A stretch of DNA of 64,000 nt from an uncultured Mycoplasmatota bacterium (GCA_948466315.1 CAOJZZ010000001.1:16931-80930), one strand, 5' to 3'; positions 2,177 through 33,122 are shown, counted from the stretch's first letter. Program-made: numbers and translations. Notes: a model not told the origin generated them from the letters alone.

Positions 2177-2452
2177 TTATTCTTGCTCATCAGATTCAGG
2201 AGCATTCTTATAAGCTTCAAGAATAGCTTCTTCAAACATAGAACGAACTTCTGGATTAATTGGATGAGCTATATCACGATAACCACCTGTAGCAGTCTTT
2301 CGGCTAGGCATTGCTATAAATAGTCCGTTATCTCCTTCAATAATACGAATATCATGTACTGCAAAACTATCATCAAGTAATACTGATGCAATTCCCTTCA
2401 TACGAGAACCCTCTTTTTCAATTTTACGTACATTTACAGATGTAATTTTCAT
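2177..2452 (-). CDS. spoVG: septation/sporulation regulator SpoVG
   Basis: MKITSVNVRKIEKEGSRMKGIASVLLDDSFAVHDIRIIEGDNGLFIAMPSRK... is a canonical SpoVG sequence. Confidence 0.95.
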   Translation of the reverse strand: MKITSVNVRKIEKEGSRMKGIASVLLDDSFAVHDIRIIEGDNGLFIAMPSRKTATGGYRDIAHPINPEVRSMFEEAILEAYKNAPESDEQE

Positions 2453-2735: not shown

Positions 2736-2948
2736 CTAATCTAAAATTTCCAAATTTTGAATCAACAAATCACTATAACTAAAAGAACGAATTTGACAAT
2801 TATCTATCGTAATAATAAAAATAGCTGGATAAAAAGCAGTAATAACACCATTAAACTCTTCTATTTGATTCCTAGTTCCATGAAATCTAAACAAATGATT
2901 CACTCCAATATTCTCTTTAACAATATTTCTCATCTTATCTATTGTCAT
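2736..2948 (-). CDS. veg: Veg (DUF1021) biofilm/sporulation-associated small protein
   Basis: The 70-aa ...RFHGTRNQIEEFNGVITAFYPAIFIITIDNCQIRSFSYSDLLIQ... matches Veg. It sits immediately downstream of yabG as in Bacillus. Confidence 0.8.
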   Translation of the reverse strand: MTIDKMRNIVKENIGVNHLFRFHGTRNQIEEFNGVITAFYPAIFIITIDNCQIRSFSYSDLLIQNLEILD

Positions 2949-3478
2949 CTTGGATACCCCACATACATTGTTCCATTCGTAATAATCCCTCCCATTCCAT
3001 CTTTTCCATATTTTGTTTTCTCAATAAGTCGTATTAAATCAATACTTTGATTTCTGTCAGATAACGCTAACGATGAAGCAATAATAGCTGGATCAAGTGC
3101 ATGAATATTAATTCTCTTAGGACTAGAAGCAAAATTAGCACCAGCCTTTATCAATTCTTCATAATTAGATTGACAAGCCCCAGCAATAATTATTAATTTA
3201 TCCTGACTCTTTTCATACTTTCGAGCTACCTTAACTGCCTCTATAAAATTAGCTGTATTTTGATAATTACTATTATCATTTTCATCCTTCTTTTTATCGT
3301 AATAAGCATCATGTCCAGTAATAACCACTATATCTGGTCTAAAATCCTGTAATAATCCCAATATCCTATCAGGCATCTCCATCTCTGGCAAAGTAATACC
3401 ATTAGCCTTAATATTCATATTATGATAAAAGTTCATACACCGCTCTAAATAATCACGGTCACCATCTGCTAAACTTTT
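2945..3478 (-). CDS. yabG: yabG 3' segment, the C-terminal ~175 codons of sporulation-specific protease YabG. It has no start codon of its own and is open upstream only to an in-frame stop at 3476-3478.
   Basis: DIVVITGHDAY...LIIIAGACQSNYEELIKAGANFASSPKRINIHALDP matches the YabG C-terminal catalytic region. The conserved region begins ...ADGDRDYLERCMNFYHN directly after a stop codon, so the gene is split. Its partner segment is at 13008..13316. Confidence 0.8.
   Translation of the reverse strand, partial: KSLADGDRDYLERCMNFYHNMNIKANGITLPEMEMPDRILGLLQDFRPDIVVITGHDAYYDKKKDENDNSNYQNTANFIEAVKVARKYEKSQDKLIIIAGACQSNYEELIKAGANFASSPKRINIHALDPAIIASSLALSDRNQSIDLIRLIEKTKYGKDGMGGIITNGTMYVGYPR
3458..3461. 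other. Predicted recombination core (GTCA) at the left junction of the intervening element (attL/attR)
   Basis: GTCA and a cGTCAsC.tc pattern are shared with the right junction at 13047..13050. Joining across it restores the YabG frame. Confidence 0.5.
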
Positions 3479-3708
3479 TTAAGTAAGCAAACTTATCATT
3501 AAAAGAAACATAATATTCCTAACAAAATAAAAAGTAGTCTAATTTTTCTAAACATAAAAATATAAACTACTACTAAATCATTATAATAACCAATAATTAA
3601 ACATAATAAGATAAAATACTCTATAAACAAGAAACCTTTGATAACTACTACAAATTTATCTTCAGATAAAAGAAATTAACAATATATTATATAAATAAAA
3701 AATTATGT

Positions 3709-5220
3709 CTAATCAATAGAAAAATCAAAAGATATCTGTACTGTATTATCCTTATAAATTAAAATACTATTAATCAAATAACTTATATAATCTTTTGACA
3801 AAAAAGAATTATTAATAAAATCTCTATAATAATCCATTATCCTTTCTTTTTTATATATATTATCTCTTTTAAAAAGATAACTATTAAGTAATCTTATTTT
3901 TCTATCTTTTAACTTCACCTCATAGTCCTTACTCTCAACAAATTGAGAAACTATAATCTCTCCATTTACCTTTTTCATATATAAATCTTTTATATTTCTA
4001 TCACTAAGTTCAATATCCTTTTGTAACTCTAGTATTTTAGTATCTATTCTCATCTTACTAATTAACCTACTACAAAAACTATTAACAATCACACTACCAT
4101 CAACATAATTCAATAAAATATTCATTACCTGCTTACTAACAATATCCATAAGAACACTATCATAAATAACTCTATTGCAACCTTTTTTTCTACAACTAAA
4201 ATAATATTTAATTAAGCCATCTTTCTTTTCTACCTTACATACTACCATCTTTTTACCACACTCTCCACAAACAACTAAATTATTAAAACAACCATTATAT
4301 TCAATATTTTTATATTTCTTTAATCTTTTAACTTTAGAGTTAGCCTTAGAAAATAAAATATCATCAATAATTACAGGATGAACATTATAAAGTAATTTTC
4401 TCTCAAAAATAGATATTCCCTTTCTTTTTTTATCCCTATAACTCCTTTTAAAACTCTTTCTTTCAACCAAACATCCAGTATACGTTCTATCTCTTAAAAT
4501 TCTATATATAATCTTATCTGACCACTTACAATCACCACTACTACTGACATCTTTTCTTTTATACAACTTAGGAGGCAACACTTTATCATCATTCAAACTA
4601 TAAGCAACCTCACTTCTCGTCATACCAGAAGAAATACTTTCAAAAATTCTCTTTACAATATCAGCTGCATATTTATCAATTTCTAAAGTTCTTTTATTAT
4701 TAACTTTAACAATTTTATAACCATAAGGCGCATAAGGACCAATAAATTCTTTATTAGAAGTTTTCATTCTAGCAACCAACTCTCGCTTAACAGAGCTATC
4801 CTTAACATATCTATCATTAATAATAGATTTAATTTCTAAAACTATATCCCTACTTAAACTATCAGACCGAAAACTATCATAATAATCATTAATCGCTATA
4901 TACCTAATATTATTTCTAGGAAAATATTCACTAATATAATATACAGTATCAATTGCTTCTCTTCCAAGCCTTGATATATCTTTTGTAATAATACATTTAA
5001 CCCTACCATTTGAAATATCATCAAGTAGCTCCATAAAGGCTGGTCTCAAAAAATTAATTCCCGAATAACCATCATCTACATATTCCTTATCAATAACAAA
5101 ATTATTTGAAAGAGCATATTCCCTAATCAACACTAATTGGTTATCTATACTAACAGAATTATCCTGAACAGAACCTAAATCTTCAGAAGAGACCCTAACA
5201 TAAGCACATACATGTTCCAT
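3709..5220 (-). CDS. large serine recombinase (resolvase N-domain, recombinase domain, zinc ribbon, coiled coil)
   Basis: 503 aa. The N-terminal AYVRVSSEDL contains the catalytic Ser, followed by DDGYSG...SRLGRE. A zinc ribbon CGECGKKM...C..C is present. Confidence 0.9.
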   Translation of the reverse strand: MEHVCAYVRVSSEDLGSVQDNSVSIDNQLVLIREYALSNNFVIDKEYVDDGYSGINFLRPAFMELLDDISNGRVKCIITKDISRLGREAIDTVYYISEYFPRNNIRYIAINDYYDSFRSDSLSRDIVLEIKSIINDRYVKDSSVKRELVARMKTSNKEFIGPYAPYGYKIVKVNNKRTLEIDKYAADIVKRIFESISSGMTRSEVAYSLNDDKVLPPKLYKRKDVSSSGDCKWSDKIIYRILRDRTYTGCLVERKSFKRSYRDKKRKGISIFERKLLYNVHPVIIDDILFSKANSKVKRLKKYKNIEYNGCFNNLVVCGECGKKMVVCKVEKKDGLIKYYFSCRKKGCNRVIYDSVLMDIVSKQVMNILLNYVDGSVIVNSFCSRLISKMRIDTKILELQKDIELSDRNIKDLYMKKVNGEIIVSQFVESKDYEVKLKDRKIRLLNSYLFKRDNIYKKERIMDYYRDFINNSFLSKDYISYLINSILIYKDNTVQISFDFSID

Positions 5221-5221
5221 A

Positions 5222-6787
5222 TTAAACTAAACAATCCTCAACCTTTTTAAAATTATAATATATTCTAACACACTTATCCTTATCAATAGTAATTTTATTA
5301 ATTAACTCCCTGATTAAAAGTTTATTAAAACCTCTTCCCTCTAAAAAATCACTTATTATCTTTTTTCTAATATTAATATCTCTATTTTGCTCATTAAATA
5401 AATTTATCTCTTCTCTTAACTTAACAATAGAAGAAGATATCTTATCTCTATCGCTTACTAAAAATTCTTTAATTTTAATAAATTCACTATCTAAAATAAT
5501 TCCATTACTCTTATCCTTATATAAAGAAGCAATACTCTTATCTATTTCTCTAAGTTTAACAAGATCTTTTCTTAATAAATTCTCATTATACTCAATAAAA
5601 CTACATCGATTAAAAATTTTTTCATATTCTTCTAAAAGTCTATCAAAACAAACATACTTATTTAATAAATTCTTAATCTCACCTAAGACAAGTTCATTAA
5701 GCAAATCTTCCCTGTAATAATGCATAGTACAAACATTATTTCTATAAGTAGCATAACTTCTACAACAATATATAGCATAAACCTCATCTTTATAACGCTT
5801 ACATCTTCTTACTAGCATCACCTTACCACAATCTGCACAAACTACTAAGCCTTTCAATAAGTAATCATATTTTCTTTTTCTAATATCATAATAAGAATTT
5901 TTACAATTAACTCTTTCAAAAACTTCATAAGAAATAATAGACTCATGATTATTTTTATTTATAATCCACTTTTCCCTAGGTAGAAGTACCCTCTTCTTAG
6001 ATTTTAAACTAACACGTTCATACTTCCCTTGAACTAAAGTACCAGTATAAACCTCATTACTTAAAATACCTTTTATAGTAGAAGCTTTCCACAAATTAGT
6101 GGTAAAATTTTTACTAACATTTCTACCTTTATATAGATTAGGAGGTAAAATCCCCCTATCAGTAAGATTCCTAGCAATCATCATAGTAGAAAAACCCTTA
6201 TCTCTCATAGAAAATATTTCTTTAACTATTAAAGAAGCATATTCATCAATTACCAATAAACGACTATCTTCTAAAGACCTTTTATATCCATATGGAACAG
6301 AACTGCCAACATACAAACCTTTCTTCATTAAACTATGCCTAGCACTCTTTATTTTTCTAGAAGTATCTTTTAAATACATGTCATTAATTACAGTTTTAAA
6401 AGGAATAATATCTTCAACCCCATTAGAATTAAAAGAATCATAACCCTCAAGTATTGCTATAAAACGAACATTATGTTCTGGAAAATATTTAAATATATAA
6501 TTACCTGTTTCAATAAACTCTCTACCTAACCTTGAGGTATCCTTAACAACAACGCAATTAACAAATCCATTCTCAATATCTTGAATTAATCTTTTAAAAC
6601 CTGGTCTCAAAAAATTCCCACCAGAATAACCATCATCTACATAATAATCATATATTTCTATTCCTTTACTTTTAACATATTCACTTATATAACTTTTCTG
6701 GTTAACTATACTAGAACTTTCAAATTCCTTATCATCATCCCTAGACAATCTAATATATAAACCAGCCTTATACTTAAAATTATCCAT
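5222..6787 (-). CDS. large serine recombinase, second of a tandem pair in a ccrA/ccrB-like arrangement
   Basis: 521 aa. The N-terminal LYIRLSRDDD contains the catalytic Ser, followed by DDGYSGGNF...SRLGREF. A zinc ribbon CADCGKVM is present. There is a 1-nt gap to the downstream recombinase. Confidence 0.9.
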   Translation of the reverse strand: MDNFKYKAGLYIRLSRDDDKEFESSSIVNQKSYISEYVKSKGIEIYDYYVDDGYSGGNFLRPGFKRLIQDIENGFVNCVVVKDTSRLGREFIETGNYIFKYFPEHNVRFIAILEGYDSFNSNGVEDIIPFKTVINDMYLKDTSRKIKSARHSLMKKGLYVGSSVPYGYKRSLEDSRLLVIDEYASLIVKEIFSMRDKGFSTMMIARNLTDRGILPPNLYKGRNVSKNFTTNLWKASTIKGILSNEVYTGTLVQGKYERVSLKSKKRVLLPREKWIINKNNHESIISYEVFERVNCKNSYYDIRKRKYDYLLKGLVVCADCGKVMLVRRCKRYKDEVYAIYCCRSYATYRNNVCTMHYYREDLLNELVLGEIKNLLNKYVCFDRLLEEYEKIFNRCSFIEYNENLLRKDLVKLREIDKSIASLYKDKSNGIILDSEFIKIKEFLVSDRDKISSSIVKLREEINLFNEQNRDINIRKKIISDFLEGRGFNKLLIRELINKITIDKDKCVRIYYNFKKVEDCLV

Positions 6788-6795
6788 AAAAGCCC

Positions 6796-6915
6796 CTATT
6801 TTTCAGTTTGTCTTTCTAATACATATTTTTCAAACAATTCTAATATTTTTTTATTAATATCAACCCCTTCATCATCATATACTGCTAAAACTAAATTATC
6901 TCTTTTTTTCATCAT
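6796..6915 (-). CDS. small ORF (39 aa) immediately upstream of the recombinase pair. It is a candidate excision-directionality or regulatory protein.
   Basis: My own translation: GGGAGG then ATGATG gives MMKKRDNLVLAVYDDEGVDINKKILELFEKYVLERQTEK*. It ends 8 nt before the recombinase ATG. It is too short for the ORF track. Confidence 0.3.
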   Translation of the reverse strand: MMKKRDNLVLAVYDDEGVDINKKILELFEKYVLERQTEK

Positions 6916-7731
6916 TAGCCTCCCACCTAAACATATGAACCTAAGTTTATGTAAAGACCAAAATTCAATCACCAAAAAACAGCATAGATTTTTCTATACT
7001 TTTTTTGAATATATATTGATATAAAAAATTTAAAAATATAACAATTACTAAGAAAGCTATTGTACTAGTAAAATATCGACACCAATAACTCCCTTTGCCT
7101 TAAAAAATTATAATTAATTTTTATTTTTTAAATAAATTTGCACAATAAAACTTATAATTATTAAATTTAACTTAAAAACTAAATATTTATAACAAATTAC
7201 CTAAGTAATTTACAATTAATAGATAAAATACGATCATGCTAAACTATTATCCATTAACTTCTATCAATTCATTAAGTTTAGAACCATTATAATTAATTTT
7301 ATTTAAATATTTATCAAAAGTATATTTTAATACAGTAAGATATATAAGATTGGGCCCTAAACCTTACAAAATAACTATAAAAGTCTAATACTTCTAAAAA
7401 TACTTATATTATCAAAACTATAATACTTAATTAAACATTAATTTACTTTTAAACAATTAATACTATGCATCAATCCCTTAGAAAATAATTGGATAAATTC
7501 TAGATTCGACTATAACTATTTTGACTAACTTAACAAAAATTCACTTAAGAGCTAGAACAAAATAAAACTATTAAATATATGAAAATATCCAAAAAAGAAT
7601 CAATATATATAATTTAATAACTACTAAGTATAAGCAGCAATACCAATAGTTACAACCAAATTTCTACAAAACATTACATTTAAACTTAAATTTAACTATT
7701 TTCAAATACTAAAACTATAAAATATTTATTA

Positions 7732-10700
7732 TTATACACTATCAATAATATCTAAAAATTCAGTATCCGTATCAATGAGTCGATTAATTAAATTATTAAA
7801 AATATGACTCATATTATTTATATAATTAGGATAAAAACCCATAGAGATTGGCACATTGTAATAACTAATATCGTCAATATTCCTAATATATAAATCTTTA
7901 TCTAAATAATTATCTTTTATAAAGATACTACATAACTCTTCTAAACCAAAGTATTCTACCATACTTTTATTATATTTAGGACCTGCCCTAGATGGAAATA
8001 ACATTTTAGTAATACATTTTGATAAAATTGAAAGATTTTCTAATAAAATATTATTATCAACATTATATTTATCAATTAAACTATTTCCTAATAACAAATT
8101 AATCTTTTTTAATTTATCTCTTAATTTAATAATACCCTGATTTTTGATAAATCCTAAATTACTAATAATAACAATATCTAAAACATCTTTTAATTCATAA
8201 TTAGAATAACTATCTATCAAATTACTCATATTTTGAATATTATAACTATTATTAAATTGACTATTACTTACACTATAAATACCATTTGAATATTCTATAT
8301 TTATAAATTTATTAACATTTGCTAAAGATCCATCACTAAATAATATTTTAGTGACAATTAATTGATAAGTATTATTATTCTCTATTGGTATAACTACCTT
8401 ATATAAAAACTCATCATCAAAAAACACCTCATAAAATATATCATTAATACAAATCTTACTAATAGATACATTTTTATTATGAATAATATTGAAGTTAAGA
8501 GCAATATAATCATTTAACTCGTGATTTAACGAATCACCAAATACATTTAAAATATCAACATGTGTCTTTGCTTCCACTTCTTTTTCAAATAACACAGTCT
8601 CGTTATTATTCACCTGACTAGAAAAACCAATAATTTTTACTATATACTTAGAAGAAATATTAGTATCAAAATTCTCCTCTATTTTATTATTATTAAAATC
8701 CTTAGTATTAATATCCTTAGAATCAATTACCATTCCTTTATCATCTAATAATACCAATTTAACTTTATAAATACTATTATCTTTATCATTTAATTCTGCT
8801 TTTACTAATAATCTATATAACTCTATATTCTCTTCTACTGAAAAATTCAAAATACTAGCCTTACGTTTAACTACATCAATATCTAATTTCTTTTCCTCAT
8901 CAAATATTATTCTTTTTCCGTTATCTAAGACAACCCCTTCAATATATATATCCTGTTTACCCAATTTATTAAACTGTAAAATAACCGCACTATAAATATC
9001 TCCATCTTTTATAACATCATAATATTTCCCATTAACTATTACTTTTTCTACAAAACATAAACTATTATTAACACTAGAAAAAACAATTTTTGGACTTTGT
9101 CCTTTTTCAAAGATATTAGTAGTATCAACACCATTAGTAATTACAATATTATCTATCTTAAATTGATAATCTTCCACTAATTGTAATTTTTTAGTAGTCT
9201 CTACTACATTTTTATGACTAATTTCACTAGTACCTGATTTATCCATATCTAAATCATATTTCAAAATAAATTTAACATTATATAATTTTCCAGCCTCAAC
9301 TGGAATAAAAATACTATTTTTCCCCTTTTTAATTGACTTACTATCAATAATATTGCCTACATCATCATCTACTCTAATAATAGAAGAAGAAATACTATTA
9401 TCATCATCTATTAAATTAAATGATAAATTTATCTTTTTTTCATCAACATATTCTTGCGTTATATAATTATCTATTCTAGGAACATCTTTTAAAACCTTTA
9501 TTTTTCTTGTATAATCAACATCTACTCTGTTACCATTATCAAATAATACCTCTGTAAAATGATATTTCTTAATCCCAGATGAATCACCAGTATTTACTCT
9601 TACTGAATATTGACTGTTACTATCAAAAACTTTATCTACCTTATACTTAACTCCATCTATTACAACTTCCACTATATTAAAATCATTTCTAACTCCTGCA
9701 ATAAATGATAAATCTATATCTTCATCTTTATTAAATGTTTCCTCCTCAACCTGCTTTATAGTAGATAAATTAACCTCATTTACTAAATCACCATCAATTT
9801 TCTTATTCAATCTTGATAAATCAGTAATTGTAATACTTTTATCATTATTTATATCGGCATTTTCTAAAGCTTTATCATCTAAAGATTTTATCTGAGTTAA
9901 ATGATACTCTAATGAGTCAACATCCAGATAATCTATTACACCATCATCATTTAATTCTCCCTTTTGCATAAATTTATAATATAATGAACTACATACTATA
10001 AGTCCTTGCAAAAACACTAATAAAGCTACTATAAATGCAAAAATTTTCTTATTACTATAATCATCGTCATAATAATAATCACTACTAAATCTTCTAATAA
10101 TTGCATATATTATAATTACTAATAAAAATACAACCACCAAGATTATTTCATTAAACTTACTTTTCTCTTGGAAATTACTAACTACTTTAAAATTTTCATT
10201 AATATAAGAAGATTTAATTGTATCTTTAGTAGTAAAATTACTATTTAAATGCTCTACTTTAGAATCATCTAATTTCCCACTATCATTAATAACATCTACT
10301 TTAACAATCTTATCATCAATAAATAAATCTTTTCTACCATCGGAGGCAACAATATCTTTTAACTTTATTTCTGTTGTACCAATATCAACATCATTTCTTA
10401 CCTTAAAACTAATTACTAACAAATCTTCTATCTTTTCATTACCATCTTTTCTAATAGAAACAAACTCACCTGTAATTTTATTATATTGTAAATTCCCCCA
10501 ATAGTTTTGACATAAAAAATCTTTCTCCGATAATTCCTCAAAAATATTTTTATTATAATCAAGTCTTGCTTTATAAGCATTAATACCGAGACCATCTTCC
10601 ACATATTGCTCTAACTTTAAAGTAACAACTAAAGTCTGACCACTTTTTATTTTCTCTTGATTAATACTTGCAGCAAAATCTAATTTAGACTTAGCCAATA

Positions 10701-10767
10701 CTGGTATAACAGAAAAAAGCAGCAAAAAAACAATAAACATTATGGTTATGTTAATAATTTTTTTCAT
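7732..10767 (-). CDS. large membrane-anchored surface protein with signal peptide, a cohesin-like N-domain, two TM helices and a dockerin-like Ca-binding repeat pair
   Basis: Signal peptide MKKIINITIMFIVFLLLFSVIPVLA. TM helices at ~aa 205-225 and 240-262. Dockerin-type loops: NDDGVIDYLDVDSL and DINNDKSITITDLSRL. The C-terminal ~700 aa is repetitive and beta-rich. Confidence 0.55.
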   Translation of the reverse strand: MKKIINITIMFIVFLLLFSVIPVLAKSKLDFAASINQEKIKSGQTLVVTLKLEQYVEDGLGINAYKARLDYNKNIFEELSEKDFLCQNYWGNLQYNKITGEFVSIRKDGNEKIEDLLVISFKVRNDVDIGTTEIKLKDIVASDGRKDLFIDDKIVKVDVINDSGKLDDSKVEHLNSNFTTKDTIKSSYINENFKVVSNFQEKSKFNEIILVVVFLLVIIIYAIIRRFSSDYYYDDDYSNKKIFAFIVALLVFLQGLIVCSSLYYKFMQKGELNDDGVIDYLDVDSLEYHLTQIKSLDDKALENADINNDKSITITDLSRLNKKIDGDLVNEVNLSTIKQVEEETFNKDEDIDLSFIAGVRNDFNIVEVVIDGVKYKVDKVFDSNSQYSVRVNTGDSSGIKKYHFTEVLFDNGNRVDVDYTRKIKVLKDVPRIDNYITQEYVDEKKINLSFNLIDDDNSISSSIIRVDDDVGNIIDSKSIKKGKNSIFIPVEAGKLYNVKFILKYDLDMDKSGTSEISHKNVVETTKKLQLVEDYQFKIDNIVITNGVDTTNIFEKGQSPKIVFSSVNNSLCFVEKVIVNGKYYDVIKDGDIYSAVILQFNKLGKQDIYIEGVVLDNGKRIIFDEEKKLDIDVVKRKASILNFSVEENIELYRLLVKAELNDKDNSIYKVKLVLLDDKGMVIDSKDINTKDFNNNKIEENFDTNISSKYIVKIIGFSSQVNNNETVLFEKEVEAKTHVDILNVFGDSLNHELNDYIALNFNIIHNKNVSISKICINDIFYEVFFDDEFLYKVVIPIENNNTYQLIVTKILFSDGSLANVNKFINIEYSNGIYSVSNSQFNNSYNIQNMSNLIDSYSNYELKDVLDIVIISNLGFIKNQGIIKLRDKLKKINLLLGNSLIDKYNVDNNILLENLSILSKCITKMLFPSRAGPKYNKSMVEYFGLEELCSIFIKDNYLDKDLYIRNIDDISYYNVPISMGFYPNYINNMSHIFNNLINRLIDTDTEFLDIIDSV

Positions 10768-10900
10768 ACCATTCTCCCCCCAAATTAGCTATTGCCTAAT
10801 ATACTAATATAAAATCAACTAACTTGCAAACATTTTTTCTCTAAATAAAGAAAATATCAATAAAAACTACTATAATTAAACAAGTTTCCTCTACTTTAAC

Positions 10901-12214
10901 TTATTTTTTACTTTCAGCACTATTAACATTTCTATCAGAAAAACGTCTTACAAAACTTTTTACCTCTTCATCAAAACCACTATAACAAATACTACTATCT
11001 AAAATATCAAAATTACTATCTAACATAATATTTTTATTAGGTAATACATCTAACTCTAAGATTTTCTCAATTTTCAATCTTTGTCTATAAAAACCATATA
11101 TTTGTTCAACTTTATCTAAAGTTGTAAATTCTTTTATTACATTAGTCATATCAGCTATTATATTACTTAAATTTTCTGAACCTATAACTTTATAATAATT
11201 TTTTAAATTATCATTTCGAGAATCACACAACTTTGTATATACTATATAGTACTCATCCTCTGCCAAATTACTCTTCAAAAAAGATAGCAAAGTTCGCAAT
11301 TTAGGCTCAATTACAACAAGCATTCTATCATCTACAACTTTATTTATAGGATTTACTACACCATTTCTTTGTATTACTTCAAAAATAGGTTTAAGTTTCT
11401 TTAACGCTTTTGACTCAAGTTGATTAATTCTAACCCGCGTTAACTCTAAATCCTTACCAACCTCTTCCTGTGTCTTAGCAGGACTTTTTATTATTCTATT
11501 ATAAATAATATAATAATCTCTTACACTCAAAACATTATATAAAGTCCTTAAAAGAATTAATTCATCATATTCTCTTTCAACGTCTAAATAAACATTTTCT
11601 CCATATGAAACAGTATCAATTAATTCCTCGTCTAGATTATCAGGTAATTTTTGATTTAATGATAATGTATCAAAAGAACTTTCCCTTTCTATATACTCTA
11701 AAAAACTATCACTAATTTTTAAGTGCTTAATTAATTGATTCCTTGTAGGATATACACCATTATCTCTAAAATATTCTTGAACATATCTCGAATATTTTCT
11801 CCTCTGACTATTAAAACGCACTGACAATTTCATATTTTTATCAATTTTATCAATATTTCTTTGTAATGATTTTTCCATTGCATAACCTAAATATGTAGAT
11901 AATTTAACTCCTTTATTTATATCAAACAATCTAACTGCATTCATTAAAATTAAATTATTCTCTTGAATTAAATCTAAAAAATCAAGATTACTACAATTAT
12001 TAATAAAGCTACCTGCTTTAAAAAAAGCTAAGCCTAAATTATGTATTACTAATCTTTGAAATGAAGTTAAATCACCATCTATTTTATACCTTTTTAATAG
12101 CTCTTCTGTCTCCTCACCTGTTAATAAAGGATAATTCTTCATATCATCAATATATATATCAATTATTTCTAAACTTCTACTCTTATACATATACTTTCCC
12201 CTCTTTTTCGTCAT
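10901..12214 (-). CDS. sigma-70 family RNA polymerase sigma factor with a ~150 aa C-terminal extension
   Basis: Region 2-like LTSFQRLVIHNLGLAFFKA and FDINKGVKLSTYLGYAMEKSL. Region 4 HTH TQEEVGKDLELTRVRINQLESKALKKLK. Confidence 0.65.
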   Translation of the reverse strand: MTKKRGKYMYKSRSLEIIDIYIDDMKNYPLLTGEETEELLKRYKIDGDLTSFQRLVIHNLGLAFFKAGSFINNCSNLDFLDLIQENNLILMNAVRLFDINKGVKLSTYLGYAMEKSLQRNIDKIDKNMKLSVRFNSQRRKYSRYVQEYFRDNGVYPTRNQLIKHLKISDSFLEYIERESSFDTLSLNQKLPDNLDEELIDTVSYGENVYLDVEREYDELILLRTLYNVLSVRDYYIIYNRIIKSPAKTQEEVGKDLELTRVRINQLESKALKKLKPIFEVIQRNGVVNPINKVVDDRMLVVIEPKLRTLLSFLKSNLAEDEYYIVYTKLCDSRNDNLKNYYKVIGSENLSNIIADMTNVIKEFTTLDKVEQIYGFYRQRLKIEKILELDVLPNKNIMLDSNFDILDSSICYSGFDEEVKSFVRRFSDRNVNSAESKK

Positions 12215-12346
12215 ATTATATCATATTAACTAAAAAGAAAAAAGAAAAAGCTTAAAAAGTTATTAAATATTTGACACTTACACAAAAATAGTAGAAAATT
12301 ATAGACAAAACAAAAAAAGAATCACTAAATGAATTCCTTCTTTTTA

Positions 12347-12808
12347 CTACCCACAAAGTAATTTACAATATTTGGAAAATAACTTATAAGTATCAGGATT
12401 TTTACTAATAAATTCAATATTAGAAAAATCATAGTTAACTGCATTTTTTGATATTTCTTCTAATATACTTTGATCTTTAGTATATATCTCAACAAAAACA
12501 TTATCAACTATAAATATGATAAGTTGGCAAGAACTTTTTAAAAATTGATTATAATTCTCAATATCATCTATATCCTTATTTTTGTAATGCATCTGTAAAT
12601 TTAAAAAGATTGGATAGTGTTCTTTTTGAATAATCTTTCGAAACTCATCGTTATTATAATTAGTTTTCTCAAAAAAAGCTTTTCCTTGTTCTCCCAAAAC
12701 TTCCTCATTCTCTATTTTCCACATATATTGTGAACAATCTATATCATGAAGTATTTTAGCCAAAATTTTACTATATTCATTTTTTATTATAAACTTTATC
12801 CCTATCAT
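12347..12808 (-). CDS. hypothetical protein (element cargo)
   Basis: 153-aa ORF with no recognisable motif. Confidence 0.4.
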   Translation of the reverse strand: MIGIKFIIKNEYSKILAKILHDIDCSQYMWKIENEEVLGEQGKAFFEKTNYNNDEFRKIIQKEHYPIFLNLQMHYKNKDIDDIENYNQFLKSSCQLIIFIVDNVFVEIYTKDQSILEEISKNAVNYDFSNIEFISKNPDTYKLFSKYCKLLCG

Positions 12809-13007
12809 AAAACCTCCTCAGATGTTAAAAATTAAATCATTAATTTCTACACAGTTCTTATGTTATGTAATGTTGATCAAAATTAATATTAAATTTAGTT
12901 ACTTAAGCATACGTCAGCCCCCTGTTTAGGAGAGCAATTTTTTTTAAAATTTTGGCGTTTTTTGTCATTTTAGAGATTTTTTTATAATTTTCTATTTTTC
13001 ATTTTCT

Positions 13008-13316
13008 TTATTTTATAAAGGTTTCAGAGTGGTTACTTAATCGAACGTCAGCGTCAATATGCAAAATCTTACCAGGTAAATAAAAATACTGACTTCTATC
13101 TATCTTTATATCTTTAACATTACGTTCAATTACCTTTTTATCATAATCAGTATCACCTCTACCAGCCTTAACTAAATCATCTACCTCACAATCAGCATAA
13201 AGTCTTAAATCTACACCTTTCAAAATAGCAACATTACCTTCAAAATCTATAATTTTAAATAAAATATCATGCTGATGAGATATTCGTGTAACAAAATCTC
13301 CAATTCTAAAATCCAC
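13008..13316 (-). CDS. yabG: yabG 5' segment. ~90 N-terminal YabG codons are fused to 12 element-encoded codons (VRLSNHSETFIK*).
   Basis: MDFRIGDFVTRISHQHDILFKII...LRLYADCEVDDLV...YLPGKILHIDAD matches the YabG N-terminus (QIGDMVARKSYQMDVLFRII...HMPGKVLHLDGD). It is directly downstream of ksgA as in Bacillus. Confidence 0.8.
   Translation of the reverse strand: MDFRIGDFVTRISHQHDILFKIIDFEGNVAILKGVDLRLYADCEVDDLVKAGRGDTDYDKKVIERNVKDIKIDRSQYFYLPGKILHIDADVRLSNHSETFIK
13047..13050. other. Predicted recombination core (GTCA) at the right junction of the intervening element
   Basis: acGTCAgCgtc here compared with cgGTCAcCatc at 3456..3466. Confidence 0.5.
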
Positions 13317-13535
13317 TCATATCATCTCCACTTAACTTTATGCCAAAAAATTAGAAATAACACATATTTATAGTAATAAAACAACTATAACCAACATATT
13401 AACAATTATTATTGAGACAACAATGTCAAAAATTATAAACTAAATTATTCTATTTTATTTACAAAAAGAAATCATTAACTCTTCATAAAATACAGACAAC
13501 AACTTATAATTATTTTTATCCAATACTCTACTTTA

Positions 13536-14363
13536 CTATTTTTCTAACAATGCATTAGCAAGAACTACAAAAATTTCTACATCTATTTCTTCTGCTCTAA
13601 CATTTAAATCAAATCCATAATCGTTTAATACCTTACTAACTATATCTAAATTATAATTTTTTAAATTATTACGTATTGTTTTTCTCTTATATTGAAAACT
13701 ATCTCTAACCAATTTTTCAAAAAAAGAAACATCCCTAGCAACAACCAAATTATTTCTAGGAACAAAAGAAAGAACAACACTATCAACATTTGGTACAGGA
13801 ATAAATTGACTTCTAGAAACAGACATTTCTTTTTTTATATTAAAAAAATATTGCAACAATACACTAATAGAACCATACTCCTTACAACCACACTTTGTAG
13901 CAAATCTCTCCCCCACTTCTTTTTGCACCATTACTACTATTTTCGTAAAAGAAAGACCACTATTTATAAGCTTCAAAATAATAGGCGTTGTAATATAATA
14001 AGGAACATTGCTTACAAAATACAAATAATCATATGAAAACAACGATATATCACTAATAATATCAGACTGTAAAAAATCTTGAAATAAAACTGAAACATTC
14101 TTACAATCTTCCAATCTCTTTTCTAATTCACTCTGTAACTCATTATCAATTTCATAAGCCAAAACATTATCAGAAACACTAGCTAATTCTCTAGTCATTA
14201 TTGCACCACCTGGTCCTACCTCAATTACTAATGATTTAGAATTAATATCAGCAATTCTTACAATCTTTTTTACTATATTTACATCTTTTAAAAAATTTTG
14301 ACCATATCTTTTCTTAAATTTAACATCATAACTTTCCATAATAATAATTAATACACTCCTCAT
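13536..14363 (-). CDS. rsmA: 16S rRNA (adenine1518/1519-N6)-dimethyltransferase RsmA/KsgA
   Basis: GQNFL motif and SAM-binding VIEVGPGGAIMTREL. Confidence 0.9.
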   Translation of the reverse strand: MRSVLIIIMESYDVKFKKRYGQNFLKDVNIVKKIVRIADINSKSLVIEVGPGGAIMTRELASVSDNVLAYEIDNELQSELEKRLEDCKNVSVLFQDFLQSDIISDISLFSYDYLYFVSNVPYYITTPIILKLINSGLSFTKIVVMVQKEVGERFATKCGCKEYGSISVLLQYFFNIKKEMSVSRSQFIPVPNVDSVVLSFVPRNNLVVARDVSFFEKLVRDSFQYKRKTIRNNLKNYNLDIVSKVLNDYGFDLNVRAEEIDVEIFVVLANALLEK

Positions 14364-17334: not shown

Positions 17335-18855
17335 CTAAGAAATCTTATCTATTCTTTTAAATAATGGTTGAGGTTGACATAAATTATAAATATTATTATC
17401 AACATATTCTAAACTAACATCAGAAATATTTATTTGACTTAATATTTCCTTACTAGTATCAGGTAAAAAGGGTTCTAATAAAACACCACAAATACGAATT
17501 GACTCTAATAGATTATATAAAACTGTTTGTAATCGCTCTTTATTATCCTCACTTTTAGCCAAAACCCATGGCTCTGTATCATCAATATACTTATTAGACC
17601 TACGTAAAACATTAAATATCTCTGTTATAGCATCACTAACATGTAATTGATCCATTTTATTAGTAACAACATCTTCTAAATTATTAATAGAACCAATAAA
17701 TGCTAAATCTATATCCTCAGAAACTTTAGAATTTGTAATTTTACCAGCAAAATACTTATTTCCCATTGAAATAGTTCTCTGTACTAAATTCCCAAGTACA
17801 TTAGCAAGATCACTATTAATCCTTTCAATAATTAAATCATAAGTAATATTACCATCACTATTAAATGGTATCTCATGAAGTAAATAATATCTAATAGCAT
17901 CTACTCCAAATTGTTCAACCAATGATGAAGCATAAAGAACATTTCCCTTAGACTTACTCATTTTATCACTATTCATCAATAACCAAGGATGACCAAATAT
18001 TTTTTTAGGAAGCTCTAATCCCAAGGACCACAAAAAGCAAGGCCAATATATAGAATGAAAACGAATTATATCTTTTCCAACTAAATGTAAATCAGCTGGC
18101 CATCTTTTCTTAAATTCAAAACTCTCATTATCAACATCATAACCAATATTAGTAATATAATTAGTTAAAGCATCTAACCATACATAAACAACATGATTAG
18201 GATCAAAATCAACTGGTATACCCCACTTTACACTCGTCCTAGATACACATAAATCCTCTAATCCAGGTTTAATAAAATTATTAATCATTTCATTTTTACG
18301 GGATTCTGGATAAATAAAATCATCATGTGAAGCAATATATTTTTCTAATCTATCCTGATATTTACTTAATCTAAAAAAATAAGCTTCTTCAACCTGTTCA
18401 CTCACCTCTCTAGAACAATCAGGACATTTACCATCAACTAACTGAGACTTCGTCCAAAAAGACTCACAAGGAGTACAATAAAGACCTTTATATTCACCCT
18501 TATATATATCACCTTGGTCATACATTTTTTTAAAAATATGTTGAACAACTCCAACATGATTAGAATCAGTAGTACGAACAAATCTATCATAACTAACATT
18601 CATTAAATCCCAAGTATTTTTTATTTCTAAATAAATCTTATCAACATAATCTTTTGGACTAATTGAAGCCTCTTTTGCTTTTTCTTCTATTTTTATTCCA
18701 TGTTCATCAGTACCAGTCTGAAAATAAACATCATACCCTTTTAATCTTTTAAATCTAGCAATAGCATCTGCTAATACAGCCTCATAAGTATTTCCAATAT
18801 GTGGCTTTGAAGAAGTATATGCAATCGCTGTAGAAATATAATATTTTTCTGCCAT
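17335..18855 (-). CDS. metG: methionine--tRNA ligase (short form)
   Basis: PHIGNTYEAV (HIGH) and KMSKS motifs. The likely start is the ATG at 18853-18855 (MAEKYYIST). The track ORF begins 3 codons earlier at a GTG. Confidence 0.9.
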   Translation of the reverse strand: MAEKYYISTAIAYTSSKPHIGNTYEAVLADAIARFKRLKGYDVYFQTGTDEHGIKIEEKAKEASISPKDYVDKIYLEIKNTWDLMNVSYDRFVRTTDSNHVGVVQHIFKKMYDQGDIYKGEYKGLYCTPCESFWTKSQLVDGKCPDCSREVSEQVEEAYFFRLSKYQDRLEKYIASHDDFIYPESRKNEMINNFIKPGLEDLCVSRTSVKWGIPVDFDPNHVVYVWLDALTNYITNIGYDVDNESFEFKKRWPADLHLVGKDIIRFHSIYWPCFLWSLGLELPKKIFGHPWLLMNSDKMSKSKGNVLYASSLVEQFGVDAIRYYLLHEIPFNSDGNITYDLIIERINSDLANVLGNLVQRTISMGNKYFAGKITNSKVSEDIDLAFIGSINNLEDVVTNKMDQLHVSDAITEIFNVLRRSNKYIDDTEPWVLAKSEDNKERLQTVLYNLLESIRICGVLLEPFLPDTSKEILSQINISDVSLEYVDNNIYNLCQPQPLFKRIDKIS

Positions 18856-18904
18856 TTTACTCACTATCCTCTCATATAAATTATATAAAAATTAATACTA
18901 TAAT

Positions 18905-19110
18905 AATAAAAAAAGATTATTAAAATATAAGGACGACAAAATCGCGGTACCACCTTATTTTATAATAATCTAATATTATACACTTTAATAGATAACGCTT
19001 ATCAGCGACTATACCTACATATCGATATAGTAGTTCAAAAGCCATATCCTAAAAAAAGACTATCCTCTTTTTCAGCAACCGAGGTCTCTAATATAGTCAA
19101 AAATTTTAAG
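18905..19110 (-). promoter_or_regulatory. T-box riboswitch leader of metS
   Basis: The minus strand carries AAGGTGGTACCGCG (plus 18944..18957). This sits inside a terminator helix GATTATTATAAAATAAGG/CCTTATATTTTAATAATC followed by U7 (plus 18908..18970). It lies upstream of an aminoacyl-tRNA synthetase. Confidence 0.6.
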
Positions 19111-19162
19111 ACTCTTCATCACAACTTTTAAAAAATACAATCCAAGTATAACATATCAAATT

Positions 19163-31364: not shown

Positions 31365-31396
31365 TAATATAAATAATTCTTTTTGTAAACTATATT

Positions 31397-31418
31397 CAAT
31401 GTTTCACGTGAAACATTG
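31397..31418. repeat. 22-bp perfect palindrome CAATGTTTCACGTGAAACATTG (copy 1 of 3)
   Basis: Its reverse complement is identical to itself. Confidence 0.9.
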
Positions 31419-32068
31419 TTCATTTTTGTAAATATACACTCGCTTAAGTAAAAATCAAATAATGAAAAATGTATATTAATACATATTTTTACAATCCACT
31501 TAGTTAATTAACTATAAGAAAAATATTACAAGTCATTTCAAAAAGCATAATAAATAATTCAATATAAAATCTATTTACTATAGAATTATCTATAAAATTC
31601 AAATTAAGCAATTTAATAAATAGTTAAATATAAAAATTGGAGTTATATAAAACATTATTATATTTTTAATTCATAATACAAACAAATTTAAAAAGAATCA
31701 ATATATTACCAAGTTAAATTTTATATAATAACCAATATAAAGGAAAAATTCAAGTAATACTATTAATTGATTTCATAATATTTTCCACAATAATAAAGTT
31801 TATTCTAATTAATTTTATTCAGTTTAATATTTGTTTTGATGTATAGTGTTAGAATTTTTAATATGAATCATATTTTAATTGATATTTATTGTTAAATAAA
31901 TTAATTTCACTTTTTTAATTTTGAAGATATTTTTATTAAAAATTTAACAATTTAATATATTTTAATTAATGATAATATTAAAACATTAAATTTTATATAC
32001 TTTTTATAAATTAATTTATAGACATATTATGTATAAACTTCATATACAATAATAGAATGCACCATAAT

Positions 32069-32103
32069 TTATCCACAATGTTTCACGTGAAACATTGTGG
32101 ATA
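32069..32103. repeat. 35-bp palindrome TTATCCACAATGTTTCACGTGAAACATTGTGGATA (copy 2), flanked by inverted perfect DnaA boxes
   Basis: Near-perfect inverted repeat. Its ends are the DnaA-box 9-mers TTATCCACA / TGTGGATA. Confidence 0.9.
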
Positions 32104-32607
32104 TTTTTCACATGTTGAATATTAATTTAGAAAATAAAATTTTATAATACTATAGAGAGTTGATAAATACAAGTAATAACAGTATTTTTACAGAATAATT
32201 GAACTTTAAGAAGCAAATATTTAATATTTCTTGTAAATAAAGTGTTACAATCTTGAAAAAAATATACATAGTCAGCAAATTACTTTTAAACTAATTGAAT
32301 TTTTTAAACTTTCACAATTTAAAAAATATGATCACTATATATTATAGATTATAAATTACCTACTCACATAAATATATCAATTTACTTAATACTAATTGAA
32401 TAAGAAAAATAATCAAGTAATTTAAAATCAATTATAAGTATTTTGTTCCATTTTTCATACATTACCTATAATGCCTAACAAAACATATCTGTTATATAAA
32501 CTAAAAAAATTAATTTAAAAGATTATACTAAGAAACTTAATCTATTTTATTAATATTAAAAAAATAGCCCTATTCGCTATTATAATATTTCAATATAATA
32601 AAACTTC

Positions 32608-32625
32608 ATGTTCCACGTGGAACAT
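32608..32625. repeat. 18-bp perfect palindrome ATGTTCCACGTGGAACAT (copy 3)
   Basis: Its reverse complement is identical to itself. It has the same CACGTG-centred family consensus ATGTTYCACGTGRAACAT. Confidence 0.9.
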
Positions 32626-33093
32626 CTCAATCCAAATGAACTATCTCCTATTGTAAAGGACTACTTTTTCAAGCAAGTATCACCCCGTAATACTTGAGCT
32701 TGTCTTCGATGCAAGCTCCAAAAAATTAACACTAAAAGATTAAATACTAACAAATTATAAATTGATTATCACACTAAACTAATTAATGTATTCATAAATT
32801 AATATCAACAAAATAAAATATACAAACACTCATTAAACAATTCCTTACTATAAAAACAATTGCTATTTTAGAAAATTAAAATTTCAAATCACCGATAATC
32901 TAATAAAGCTATTAAAAATAAAATACAATATTTAAGAAAAATATTTTCTATATAACATTAGACTAACATAATAACAAAATAGAAATTAAACCCATTATTA
33001 CCTAAAAAAATAGAAAAAATCCTCATATTCCAAACAAAATATTTTATCCACAAGAAAAATTGACTATATTTTACATAATATAATACAAAAATT

Positions 33094-33122
33094 GACAAAA
33101 AAATAATAGGAACTATCCTATT
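33094..33122 (-). terminator. rho-independent terminator of gyrA
   Basis: The minus strand reads AATAGGATAGTTCCTATT (hairpin overlapping the stop codon) followed by AUUUUUUUG. Confidence 0.6.

Follow-up and report, generated by a model that had tools for sequence, protein, structure and literature searches.

The yabG gene of an uncultured Mycoplasmatota bacterium, which encodes a peptidase of family U57, is found in two pieces with a 9,589-bp element between them, and the question that this locus raises is whether such a gene is lost or whether it is still put together and used. The locus lies in a 64,000-nt stretch (the window), which is part of an 86.6-kb contig of a metagenome-assembled genome (MAG). 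Coordinates are window positions, except where they follow one of the labels (L001, L006, L008, L009, L013, L173-L177 etc.) under which loci with and without an intervening element were compared. As outlined below, the element is probably a non-phage integrative element that entered yabG by recombination through large serine recombinases (LSRs) and is excised to rebuild the gene, most likely in the mother cell. The two halves and the genes of the host flanks are:

13053..13316, minus strand: yabG 5' half, with a GTG start; codons 1-88, ending in ...LPGKILHID
2945..3466, minus strand: yabG 3' half, codons 88-260 and the stop; ITGHD and AGACQS motifs
13536..14363, minus strand: rsmA/ksgA, host flank (TIGR00755, 238.7 bits versus a cut-off of 171)
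2736..2948, minus strand: veg, host flank (Pfam VEG)
2177..2452, minus strand: spoVG, host flank (Pfam SpoVG)

A preliminary description of this DNA had taken two co-oriented minus-strand open reading frames (ORFs) for the halves of YabG, and profile searches bear this out. Pfam PF05582 (YabG peptidase U57) is matched by the ORF at 13008..13316 (minus strand) at profile positions 2-69 (E 1e-17) and by the open frame at 2945..3478 (minus strand) at positions 109-280 of 280 (E 2e-70), and NCBIfam TIGR02855 agrees with PF05582 on both halves. Halves that are not colinear with YabG had been named as an outcome that would speak against the assignment; in the alignment with intact YabG orthologues both are colinear, the 3' half to 100%. 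The 5'-half ORF continues to position 13008 through 14 element-derived codons (ADVRLSNHSETFIK) and a stop, so that the preliminary description was right about the YabG N-terminus and the stop, while its 12 foreign codons become 14 with the refined junction. No further piece of yabG was found by tblastn in the 64-kb window besides the two halves. The neighbours are those which had been reported, with ksgA on the 5' side and veg-spoVG on the 3' side (TIGR00755, Pfam VEG and SpoVG); the same order rsmA-yabG-veg is found in the uninterrupted relative L006, and the order of the host flanks is constant across the related loci. The stop codon of yabG overlaps the start codon of veg (ATGA, 2945-2948). 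In the split state veg sits 3' of the recombinase operon of the element instead of the yabG promoter.

The G+C content of the window is uniform at about 25%, without a compositional break at the element. Element and junctions recur at 99.7-100% nucleotide identity on contigs from several independent metagenome assemblies, and five of the contigs bearing the window-type element were compared base by base with the window. Among the sequencing runs and assemblies in which the element is found are SRR36555135, SRR36555104, SRR22050017, SRR22050021 and ERZ14865206.

In order to locate the crossover, the split locus was compared with intact orthologues and with other elements of the family. The insertion lies at codon 88/89 of yabG in the conserved motif LPGKILHID/GD (here and below, slashes outside brackets mark the borders of the crossover), and the crossover itself is the GA of the Asp88 codon, which is present on both sides of the element:

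13029..13080, minus strand: attL, composed of the B arm TTTACCTGGTAAGATTTTGCATATT, the crossover GA (13055-13054) and the P' arm CGCTGACGTTCGATTAAGTAACCAC
3440..3491, minus strand: attR, composed of the P arm TTTGCTTACTTAAAAAAGTTTAGCA, the crossover GA (3466-3465) and the B' arm TGGTGACCGTGATTATTTAGAGCGG

The junction was set at this GA because intact orthologues read HID-GD at this point and because three independent identity breaks fall on the same dinucleotide. All ten close intact YabG proteins read HID-GD-x-(E/D)YL(E/D)R at the junction. The similarity of the split locus to the intact locus L006 ends and resumes at the GA; between L173 and L174, which carry an identical element in different hosts, identity breaks right after ...AGCAGA, the next TG being shared host bases; and in L001 and L008 the junctions of tandem elements have the same GA base as their joining point. 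The left flank of L001 differs, yet it joins at the same base as attL. A crossover at the shared TGAC, resulting in HIDAD-RDY, was considered as well and rejected, as the intact orthologues read HIDGD and the three identity breaks lie at the upstream GA. It is at this TGAC that the preliminary description had joined position 3461 to 13051, which is 4-5 bp off.

The unambiguous shared core of the two sites is the GA dinucleotide, which lies inside an imperfect GAYGSTGAC similarity. A P-arm motif TTACTTA-N8-9-(Y)AGCA/GA is kept in 6 elements. The reconstructed attP is pseudo-palindromic (TTACTTAA...AGCA/GA/CGCT...TTAAGTAA) around the non-palindromic GA crossover, with symmetric half-sites of the form GxTTACTTAA-N8-9-(Y)AGC(A/G) flanking the GA. 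Asymmetry is seen in attB, where B' is the only one of the two arms that is similar to the P-type inner motif. After excision the attB junction is predicted to read TTTTGCATATTGA/TGGTGACCGTGATT (...GATTTTGCATATTGA/TGGTGACCGTGATTATTTAG...), and the junction of the circular attP is predicted to read AAAAGTTTAGCAGA/CGCTGACGTTCG (...CTTAAAAAAGTTTAGCAGA/CGCTGACGTTCGATTAAGTAAC...).

Joined at the shared GA, the two halves give an in-frame YabG of 260 amino acids (aa), which scores 287.9 bits against TIGR02855 (cut-off 270.4) and, at 100% coverage, shares 89-72% identity with uninterrupted YabG proteins, 89% being the value of the best match. The comparison of the joined peptide with uninterrupted relatives, which the preliminary description had proposed as a check, thus returned intact orthologues over the full length. 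Furthermore, the joined protein retains all columns that are invariant in ten intact orthologues, including H139 (in ITGHD) and C185 (in AGACQS), which we take to be the catalytic dyad.

Between the halves, the preliminary description had placed about 9.6 kb with two LSRs and cargo, and Pfam domains confirm this content for the 9,589 bp. The part of the element next to attR comprises:

3709..5220, minus strand: LSR-A, the att-proximal LSR, 503 aa (Resolvase, Recombinase; Zn ribbon just under the cut-off; catalytic motif YVRVS)
5222..6787, minus strand: LSR-B, the att-distal LSR, 521 aa (Resolvase, Recombinase, Zn_ribbon_recom; catalytic motif YIRLS)
6796..6915, minus strand: acidic ORF of 39 aa (MMKKRDNLVLAVYDDEGVDINKKILELFEKYVLERQTEK, isoelectric point (pI) 5.2), conserved directly 5' of the recombinase pair

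The start of LSR-A overlaps the stop region of LSR-B, and the two proteins are 35% identical. The closest solved structures to both are TnpX and SprA/YokA, and the best NCBIfam match for both is CcrB (NF047343), with 102.9 and 100.2 bits versus a cut-off of 900. For the 39-aa ORF no family was found in Pfam, NCBIfam or PHROG. Phage structural or lysis genes were not found in the element, the only PHROG matches being integrase/invertase and sigma factor.

The window element is one of a family: the LSR-A relatives sampled, 7 clusters in number (100, 78, 50, 49, 46, 45 and 42% identity), all sit at the same yabG codon. The members share a module of an acidic ORF of about 40 aa, a recombinase of the LSR-B type, one of the LSR-A type and attP, and vary in cargo; in all sampled members but L177 the recombinase pair is followed by attR. 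The small ORF is intact directly 5' of the pair in 6 of the 7 family elements, where it measures 39-43 aa with a pI of 4.8-5.2, and is truncated to 15 codons in L177. Recombinases of the A type are 42-78% identical to each other and those of the B type 47-86%, versus 30-36% between the types, and all keep R-x-S. The A and B types therefore form two position-specific orthologous groups that are paired in every member, which argues that the pair is ancient and maintained.

In L177 (8410-11551 and 8000-8190) the recombinase pair lies beside attL together with the small ORF of 15 codons, and about 150 nt inside attL there is a compact site, TTACTTA-N14-TTAAGTAA, which may be what a decayed tandem element left behind. 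The member carrying RHS genes (L173-L175, L180-L188) has a resolvase-domain fragment of 131 aa between the A-type recombinase and attR.

With respect to the extent of the family, relatives of the small ORF (36-61 aa) make up 58 clusters in the protein collection, none of which has a name, and the small ORF of the RHS-carrying member alone was present in 745 indexed blocks of the sequence collection, on contigs of up to 1.27 Mb, some of them from the human gut. All 24 contigs examined for this ORF show the yabG context. A genome scan with the recombinase alignment returned one close locus (L013) and two unrelated yabG splits; in the corresponding metagenome scan the matches listed were all generic recombinases of 28-37% identity.

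The remaining genes of the window element are cargo:

12347..12808, minus strand: DUF2691 protein, 153 aa (Pfam PF10903, E 3e-32)
10901..12214, minus strand: sigma-70-family protein, 437 aa (Pfam Sigma70_r2/r4), with a C-terminal extension
7732..10767, minus strand: protein of 1011 aa with a hydrophobic N-terminus and a dockerin type I domain (Pfam Dockerin_1, E 4e-6)

The DUF2691 gene is present in the window element and not in its closest relative L009. The C-terminal extension of the sigma-70-family protein amounts to about 160 aa; the protein belongs to PHROG 351 (sigma factor), does not match the sigma-E and sigma-K models, and scores far below the cut-offs of the RpoD/RpoS-type NCBIfam models. 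It evolves fast, with a ratio of non-synonymous to synonymous substitution rates (dN/dS) of 0.46 against L009, and that of the dockerin protein, for which no PHROG match was obtained, is 0.51. Another family member, L176, encodes a sigma-70 region-4 protein of 158 aa. Between the 1011-aa gene and the 39-aa ORF lie 0.8 kb of non-coding DNA, and a search of the non-coding stretches of the element against Rfam gave no match. From the yabG 5' half to the first cargo gene, the minus strand has no predicted terminator. The cargo common to the window element and L009 is the sigma factor and the dockerin protein; L173-L176 carry RHS/YD toxins of >2,000 aa, L177 a giant M26-peptidase/dockerin protein and L013 unrelated genes. 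All called genes are co-oriented with yabG in every family element, so that read-through from the yabG promoter into the cargo is possible.

Evidence on how the elements are passed on was obtained from pairs of loci. The RHS-carrying member is at least 99.5% identical over its last 4 kb in three hosts whose yabG 3' halves are 68-74% identical, and the identity between these hosts collapses at the GA. Such identity of an element in divergent hosts argues for recent horizontal transfer with site-specific integration. Tandem arrangements were found at the same site: in L008 (1-2746) an element X, with its own recombinase pair and a resolvase fragment of 165 aa, lies 5' of an L009-type element, and its 30-nt right end equals the left end of L001 (1-30), which carries the window-type element, thus in two hosts with different residents. 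In the window species, the proteins of the N half end in four different tails derived from elements and none is of full length, and all members of the N-half cluster (8/8) end after HID. An intact yabG allele of the window species is not in the protein collection, where the best match is 89% identical; neither were intact alleles of other element-bearing hosts found among 120 YabG matches.

For the window and its L009/L008 relative, the synonymous divergence (dS) of five element genes is 0.36-0.50, which is also the range for rsmA, the sipW-like gene, a 201-aa gene, veg and yabP of the hosts. In yabG, dN/dS amounts to 0.05 (5' half) and 0.013 (3' half, versus the split allele in L008), which is lower than in rsmA, veg and the sipW-like gene; against L009 the values are 0.16 for LSR-B, 0.26 for LSR-A, 0.17 for the small ORF and about 0.5 for the cargo. 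None of the eight distinct split alleles examined contains a stop or a frameshift. Strong purifying selection on both halves implies that the gene is still used and consequently must be rebuilt, and purifying selection on co-diverged split alleles is what a model predicts in which the split gene is inherited unexcised and rejoined in the mother cell. That the window element and the L009/L008 relative co-diverged with their hosts is the simplest reading of these divergences, although they may, less probably, have been acquired independently. On these comparisons the family is both mobile, as seen in the recent spread of one member, and inherited, as seen in the window element.

A possible link to sporulation was found upstream of the recombination genes, where a short box resembles one upstream of yabG:

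6929..6937, minus strand: CATATGTTT box, 22 nt 5' of the small ORF and immediately before its Shine-Dalgarno sequence; putative -10 element of the small ORF-LSR-B-LSR-A operon
13334..13342, minus strand: CATAAAGTT box, 26 nt 5' of the yabG start and directly before the Shine-Dalgarno sequence; putative sigma-E/sigma-K-like -10 element

In all seven members (7/7) the sequence TCATAnnnT(T)A stands 2-5 nt before the Shine-Dalgarno sequence of the small ORF, within surroundings that are not conserved. A CATAnnnT box occurs at the same distance 5' of yabG in 5 genomes and 5' of yabP in 6. Within the window CATANNNT is found at ≤45 nt from the start in 5 of 55 ORFs (≥90 aa), and at 25-26 nt only for yabG and yabP. 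The -10 consensus of both mother-cell sigma factors begins with CATA, and the box may therefore be taken as a hint, and only as a hint, of mother-cell transcription of the recombination operon. A generic sigma-70 promoter and terminator scan of the element gave as many matches as shuffled sequence and is uninformative in such AT-rich DNA.

Taken together, the following course of events is proposed. Recombination of attL with attR would excise the element precisely and rebuild yabG. LSR-A and LSR-B would catalyze this step, probably together, and the small acidic protein is a candidate recombination directionality factor (RDF) that may license excision. The asymmetric attB and the strict pairing of the A and B types suggest that the two recombinases act as a heteromer or divide the labour between them. 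In analogy to skin, SPbeta, gin and yin, excision would most likely take place in the terminally differentiated mother cell, with the germ line keeping the element; the mother-cell-specific timing is thereby inferred from these systems. A skin-type recombinase element splitting yabG is what the preliminary description had put forward, and the colinear halves, the in-frame join, the LSR family and the purifying selection all agree with it.

Several observations weigh against this course of events. Neither an attB nor an attP junction, as expected from excision, has been observed, and a search of viral contigs for attP was without match. If the small ORF is an RDF and is co-transcribed with both recombinases, integration after transfer would need RDF-free expression of the recombinases, for which no separate promoter was identified. 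At the operon the CATA box lies so near to the Shine-Dalgarno sequence that transcription starting 6-8 nt downstream would begin in or at it; a convincing shared -35 element was not found, and a consistent match to sigma-K (AC-N16-17-CATA) or sigma-E spacing at the small-ORF box was not seen by eye, for which reason our claim is limited to a -10-like box. The search for a second yabG covers the 64 kb of the window and thus only this part of the genome. Finally, dS is uneven among the host genes (spoVG 0.05, divIC 0.07), and the left ends of the window element and L009 differ (DUF2691 present or absent, different P' arms), which makes co-divergence the simplest reading and not a proven one.

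Other explanations of the locus have to be weighed against these findings. As the window derives from a MAG, an island might have been joined to yabG fragments in a chimeric contig during assembly or binning. We regard this as practically negligible, since the junctions are identical on contigs that were assembled independently, from several samples and with two assemblers, which shows that the split is not an assembly artefact, and since many other assemblies, scaffolds of >1 Mb among them, contain homologous elements at this same codon. An ordinary mobile island that uses the yabG motif as its attachment site would leave yabG permanently inactive, the loss being tolerated or beneficial. The recent spread of one member among three species, by which some insertions are young, the tandem pile-up at the site, as at any hot attB, the cargo of RHS toxins, surface proteins and a sigma factor, which is typical of selfish or competitive islands, and the unseen excision product would all fit such an island. 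It is nevertheless improbable in our view, because dN/dS of yabG between co-diverged split alleles is as low as 0.013-0.05 and thus under that of rsmA, veg and the sipW-like gene, because the eight split alleles are free of stops and frameshifts, and because the joined protein keeps all invariant residues.

A further possibility, to which we assign a low but appreciable probability, is a reversible or stochastic switch, in which the element is excised and re-integrated in part of the vegetative cells (active lysogeny) and excision also serves transfer. In the case of yin, both the circle and intact yabG could be detected at every time point, with only a rise on entry into sporulation (PMC10747680); moreover, the present family is transfer-competent, which needs excision in cells that are not dead ends, and assembly graphs branch at attL in some samples. 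This branch, however, represents a tandem second element and not an empty site, the protein collection lacks an intact allele of the window species, and the box 5' of the recombination operon matches the pattern of the mother-cell genes yabG and yabP and not a housekeeping pattern. Excision that rebuilds yabG, most likely in the mother cell, is therefore the explanation that we prefer. A bolder version of it is possible but rather doubtful: that the family is a distinct type of developmental excision module, in which an obligate A/B pair reads asymmetric attB half-sites under the control of a 40-aa factor, which is fixed in the split yabG of an abundant, small-genome, uncultured lineage of Bacilli from human and animal guts (Mycoplasmatota in the labelling of some sources), and which provides mother-cell-timed expression of its cargo. 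If this were true, the co-oriented cargo could be transcribed specifically in the mother cell, either from the promoter of yabG or on the circle after excision, and the element would be a vehicle for mother-cell-timed toxins or surface proteins.

The known intervening elements of sporulation genes are skin in sigK, SPbeta in spsM, vfbin in spoVFB and gin in gerE, and to these yin in yabG has to be added. In B. subtilis yabG is SigK-dependent, and it is described as the sole SigK-regulon member to be conserved in all spore formers (PMC10747680). The preliminary description had held that yabG was not among the described targets, which is outdated: in C. botulinum V73 the gene is interrupted by yin, for which PCR demonstrated both excision and the circle (Douillard et al. 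2023, PMC10747680). It was absent from 26 related isolates, and the authors described it as unique, reporting that up to November 2023 public genomes contained no further element that interrupts yabG (PMC10747680). Compared at the gene level, the window element and yin share the yabG target, an LSR beside one gene half, a precise excision (predicted here) that restores the gene and a small candidate RDF. They differ in that yin is a predicted functional prophage with a single recombinase and a 14-bp repeat, known from one Clostridium strain, whereas the present element is non-phage, has two recombinases and a GA core, lies in an uncultured low-GC Bacilli lineage and thus in another bacterial class, and belongs to a family found on hundreds of contigs.

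As a non-phage element in a mother-cell sporulation gene, with several serine recombinases, two of them in an operon, gin in gerE of Bacillus cereus ATCC 10987 is similar to the window element (Abe et al. 2017, PMC5595907). Its RDF GirX comprises 42 aa without a conserved motif, and recombinase and RDF are transcribed during sporulation (PMC5595907). In contrast to the window element, gin is a 31-gene island in another target, gerE, with three recombinases that are 22-26% identical and of which only GirC is needed (PMC5595907); here the small ORF and two recombinases make up a tight operon, the recombinases being conserved as a pair in every member. The skin elements (SpoIVCA/Skr in B. subtilis, CD1231/CD1234 in C. 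difficile) are likewise inherited in a split mother-cell gene and excised by an LSR, with a small RDF under a mother-cell sigma factor providing directionality and cell specificity (PMC5025042). In C. difficile, where the recombinase is constitutive, the RDF CD1234 is small and acidic and has a sigma-E promoter as well as a leader of 14 nt (PMC5025042). The skin elements are, however, defective prophages in sigK with a single recombinase, and the sequence relationship is limited to the LSR superfamily. SPbeta (spsM; SprA/SprB) follows the same logic of developmental excision, and SprA is among the closest solved structures, but SPbeta is an active 134-kb phage with one recombinase and another target (PMC4191935, PMC5499854).

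Adjacent, co-oriented LSRs that cluster by position and insert into genes at short repeats are furthermore known from ccrAB of the staphylococcal cassette chromosome (SCC) and from the serine-integrase triplets of streptococcal integrative and conjugative elements (ICEs), for which position-specific clustering and insertion inside genes with 2-8 bp repeats were described (PMC4701971). The window element differs from both by its score of about 100 bits versus the Ccr cut-off of 900, by the lack of a conjugation module and by its target, which is yabG and not rlmH; neither ccrAB nor the ICE triplets are tied to sporulation. In the survey of Abe et al. 2014 yabG does not occur, and neither yabG nor U57 is mentioned in the main text and supplements of the regulated-gene-integrity survey of Mageeney et al. 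2020. A description of a family of yabG elements was not found in the literature searched. Each difference from yin has a precedent, as gin is non-phage with several recombinases and yin itself targets yabG. What is new here is the family, its fixed insertion codon, the paired recombinases with their 40-aa partner and the co-divergence plus recent spread.

Further yabG genes are split at other positions. In L039 (3128-7865; Marinisporobacter sp. MAG McD2.5, JAOARV010000065.1) the U57 profile is matched over positions 1-229 at 3128-3847 and 227-280 at 7701-7865, with an element of about 3.85 kb between them that encodes one unrelated serine recombinase (472 aa), an ORF judged thiolase-like by eye and a 259-aa ORF. 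Downstream in the same locus (7885-12280) follow a SpoIID-domain ORF (7885-8685), an EamA-like gene (by eye), an LSR (9956-11521) and an Amidase_3 ORF, the N-terminus of which resembles the end of SpoIID, so that this may be a second sporulation-type gene split by a recombinase element of about 3 kb. A third split site is found in L028 (5171-8517; uncultured Clostridia bacterium BRZ_MK bin25), where an LSR and an ORF that appears ATPase-like by eye precede the 3' part of yabG, which begins at ...IVTGHD (U57 profile 163-278) and is followed by veg; the 5' half lies beyond the contig. Altogether, at least three unrelated recombinase lineages target yabG at three different conserved motifs.

The genomes related to the window are labelled 'uncultured Bacilli bacterium' (a rabbit gut MAG) or 'Mycoplasmatota bacterium'. 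The preliminary description had listed a set of sporulation genes in the window, and spoVG, spoVT, yabP and yaaT (PSP1) are confirmed, while yabQ (25.5 bits versus 27) and the sipW-type S26 signal peptidase (22.2 versus 22.9) remain just under their Pfam cut-offs. Strong purifying selection on yabG, yabP and spoVG argues for functional sporulation in the host. Elsewhere, the window spans the region of the replication origin, with dnaA, dnaN, gyrB and gyrA assigned by position and size. A stretch of 1.75 kb between the signal recognition particle (SRP) RNA gene and gyrA (31366-33120) contains no ORF >46 aa, no Rfam match and no tRNA, and a T-box leader (18926-19131) lies 5' of the methionyl-tRNA synthetase gene (17335-18864).

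YabG controls coat maturation and, in C. difficile, germinant processing. Its gene is a recurrent target of recombinases, beyond the single strain that has been published, and in many uncultured gut Bacilli one family sits at the same codon of it. The family constitutes a natural series of attB/attP sites with their paired recombinases, which would be useful for work on specificity and directionality, and it allows the vertical co-divergence and the recent horizontal spread of intervening elements to be compared directly within one family. The family is, at the same time, evidence that these gut lineages with reduced genomes retain a working sporulation programme.

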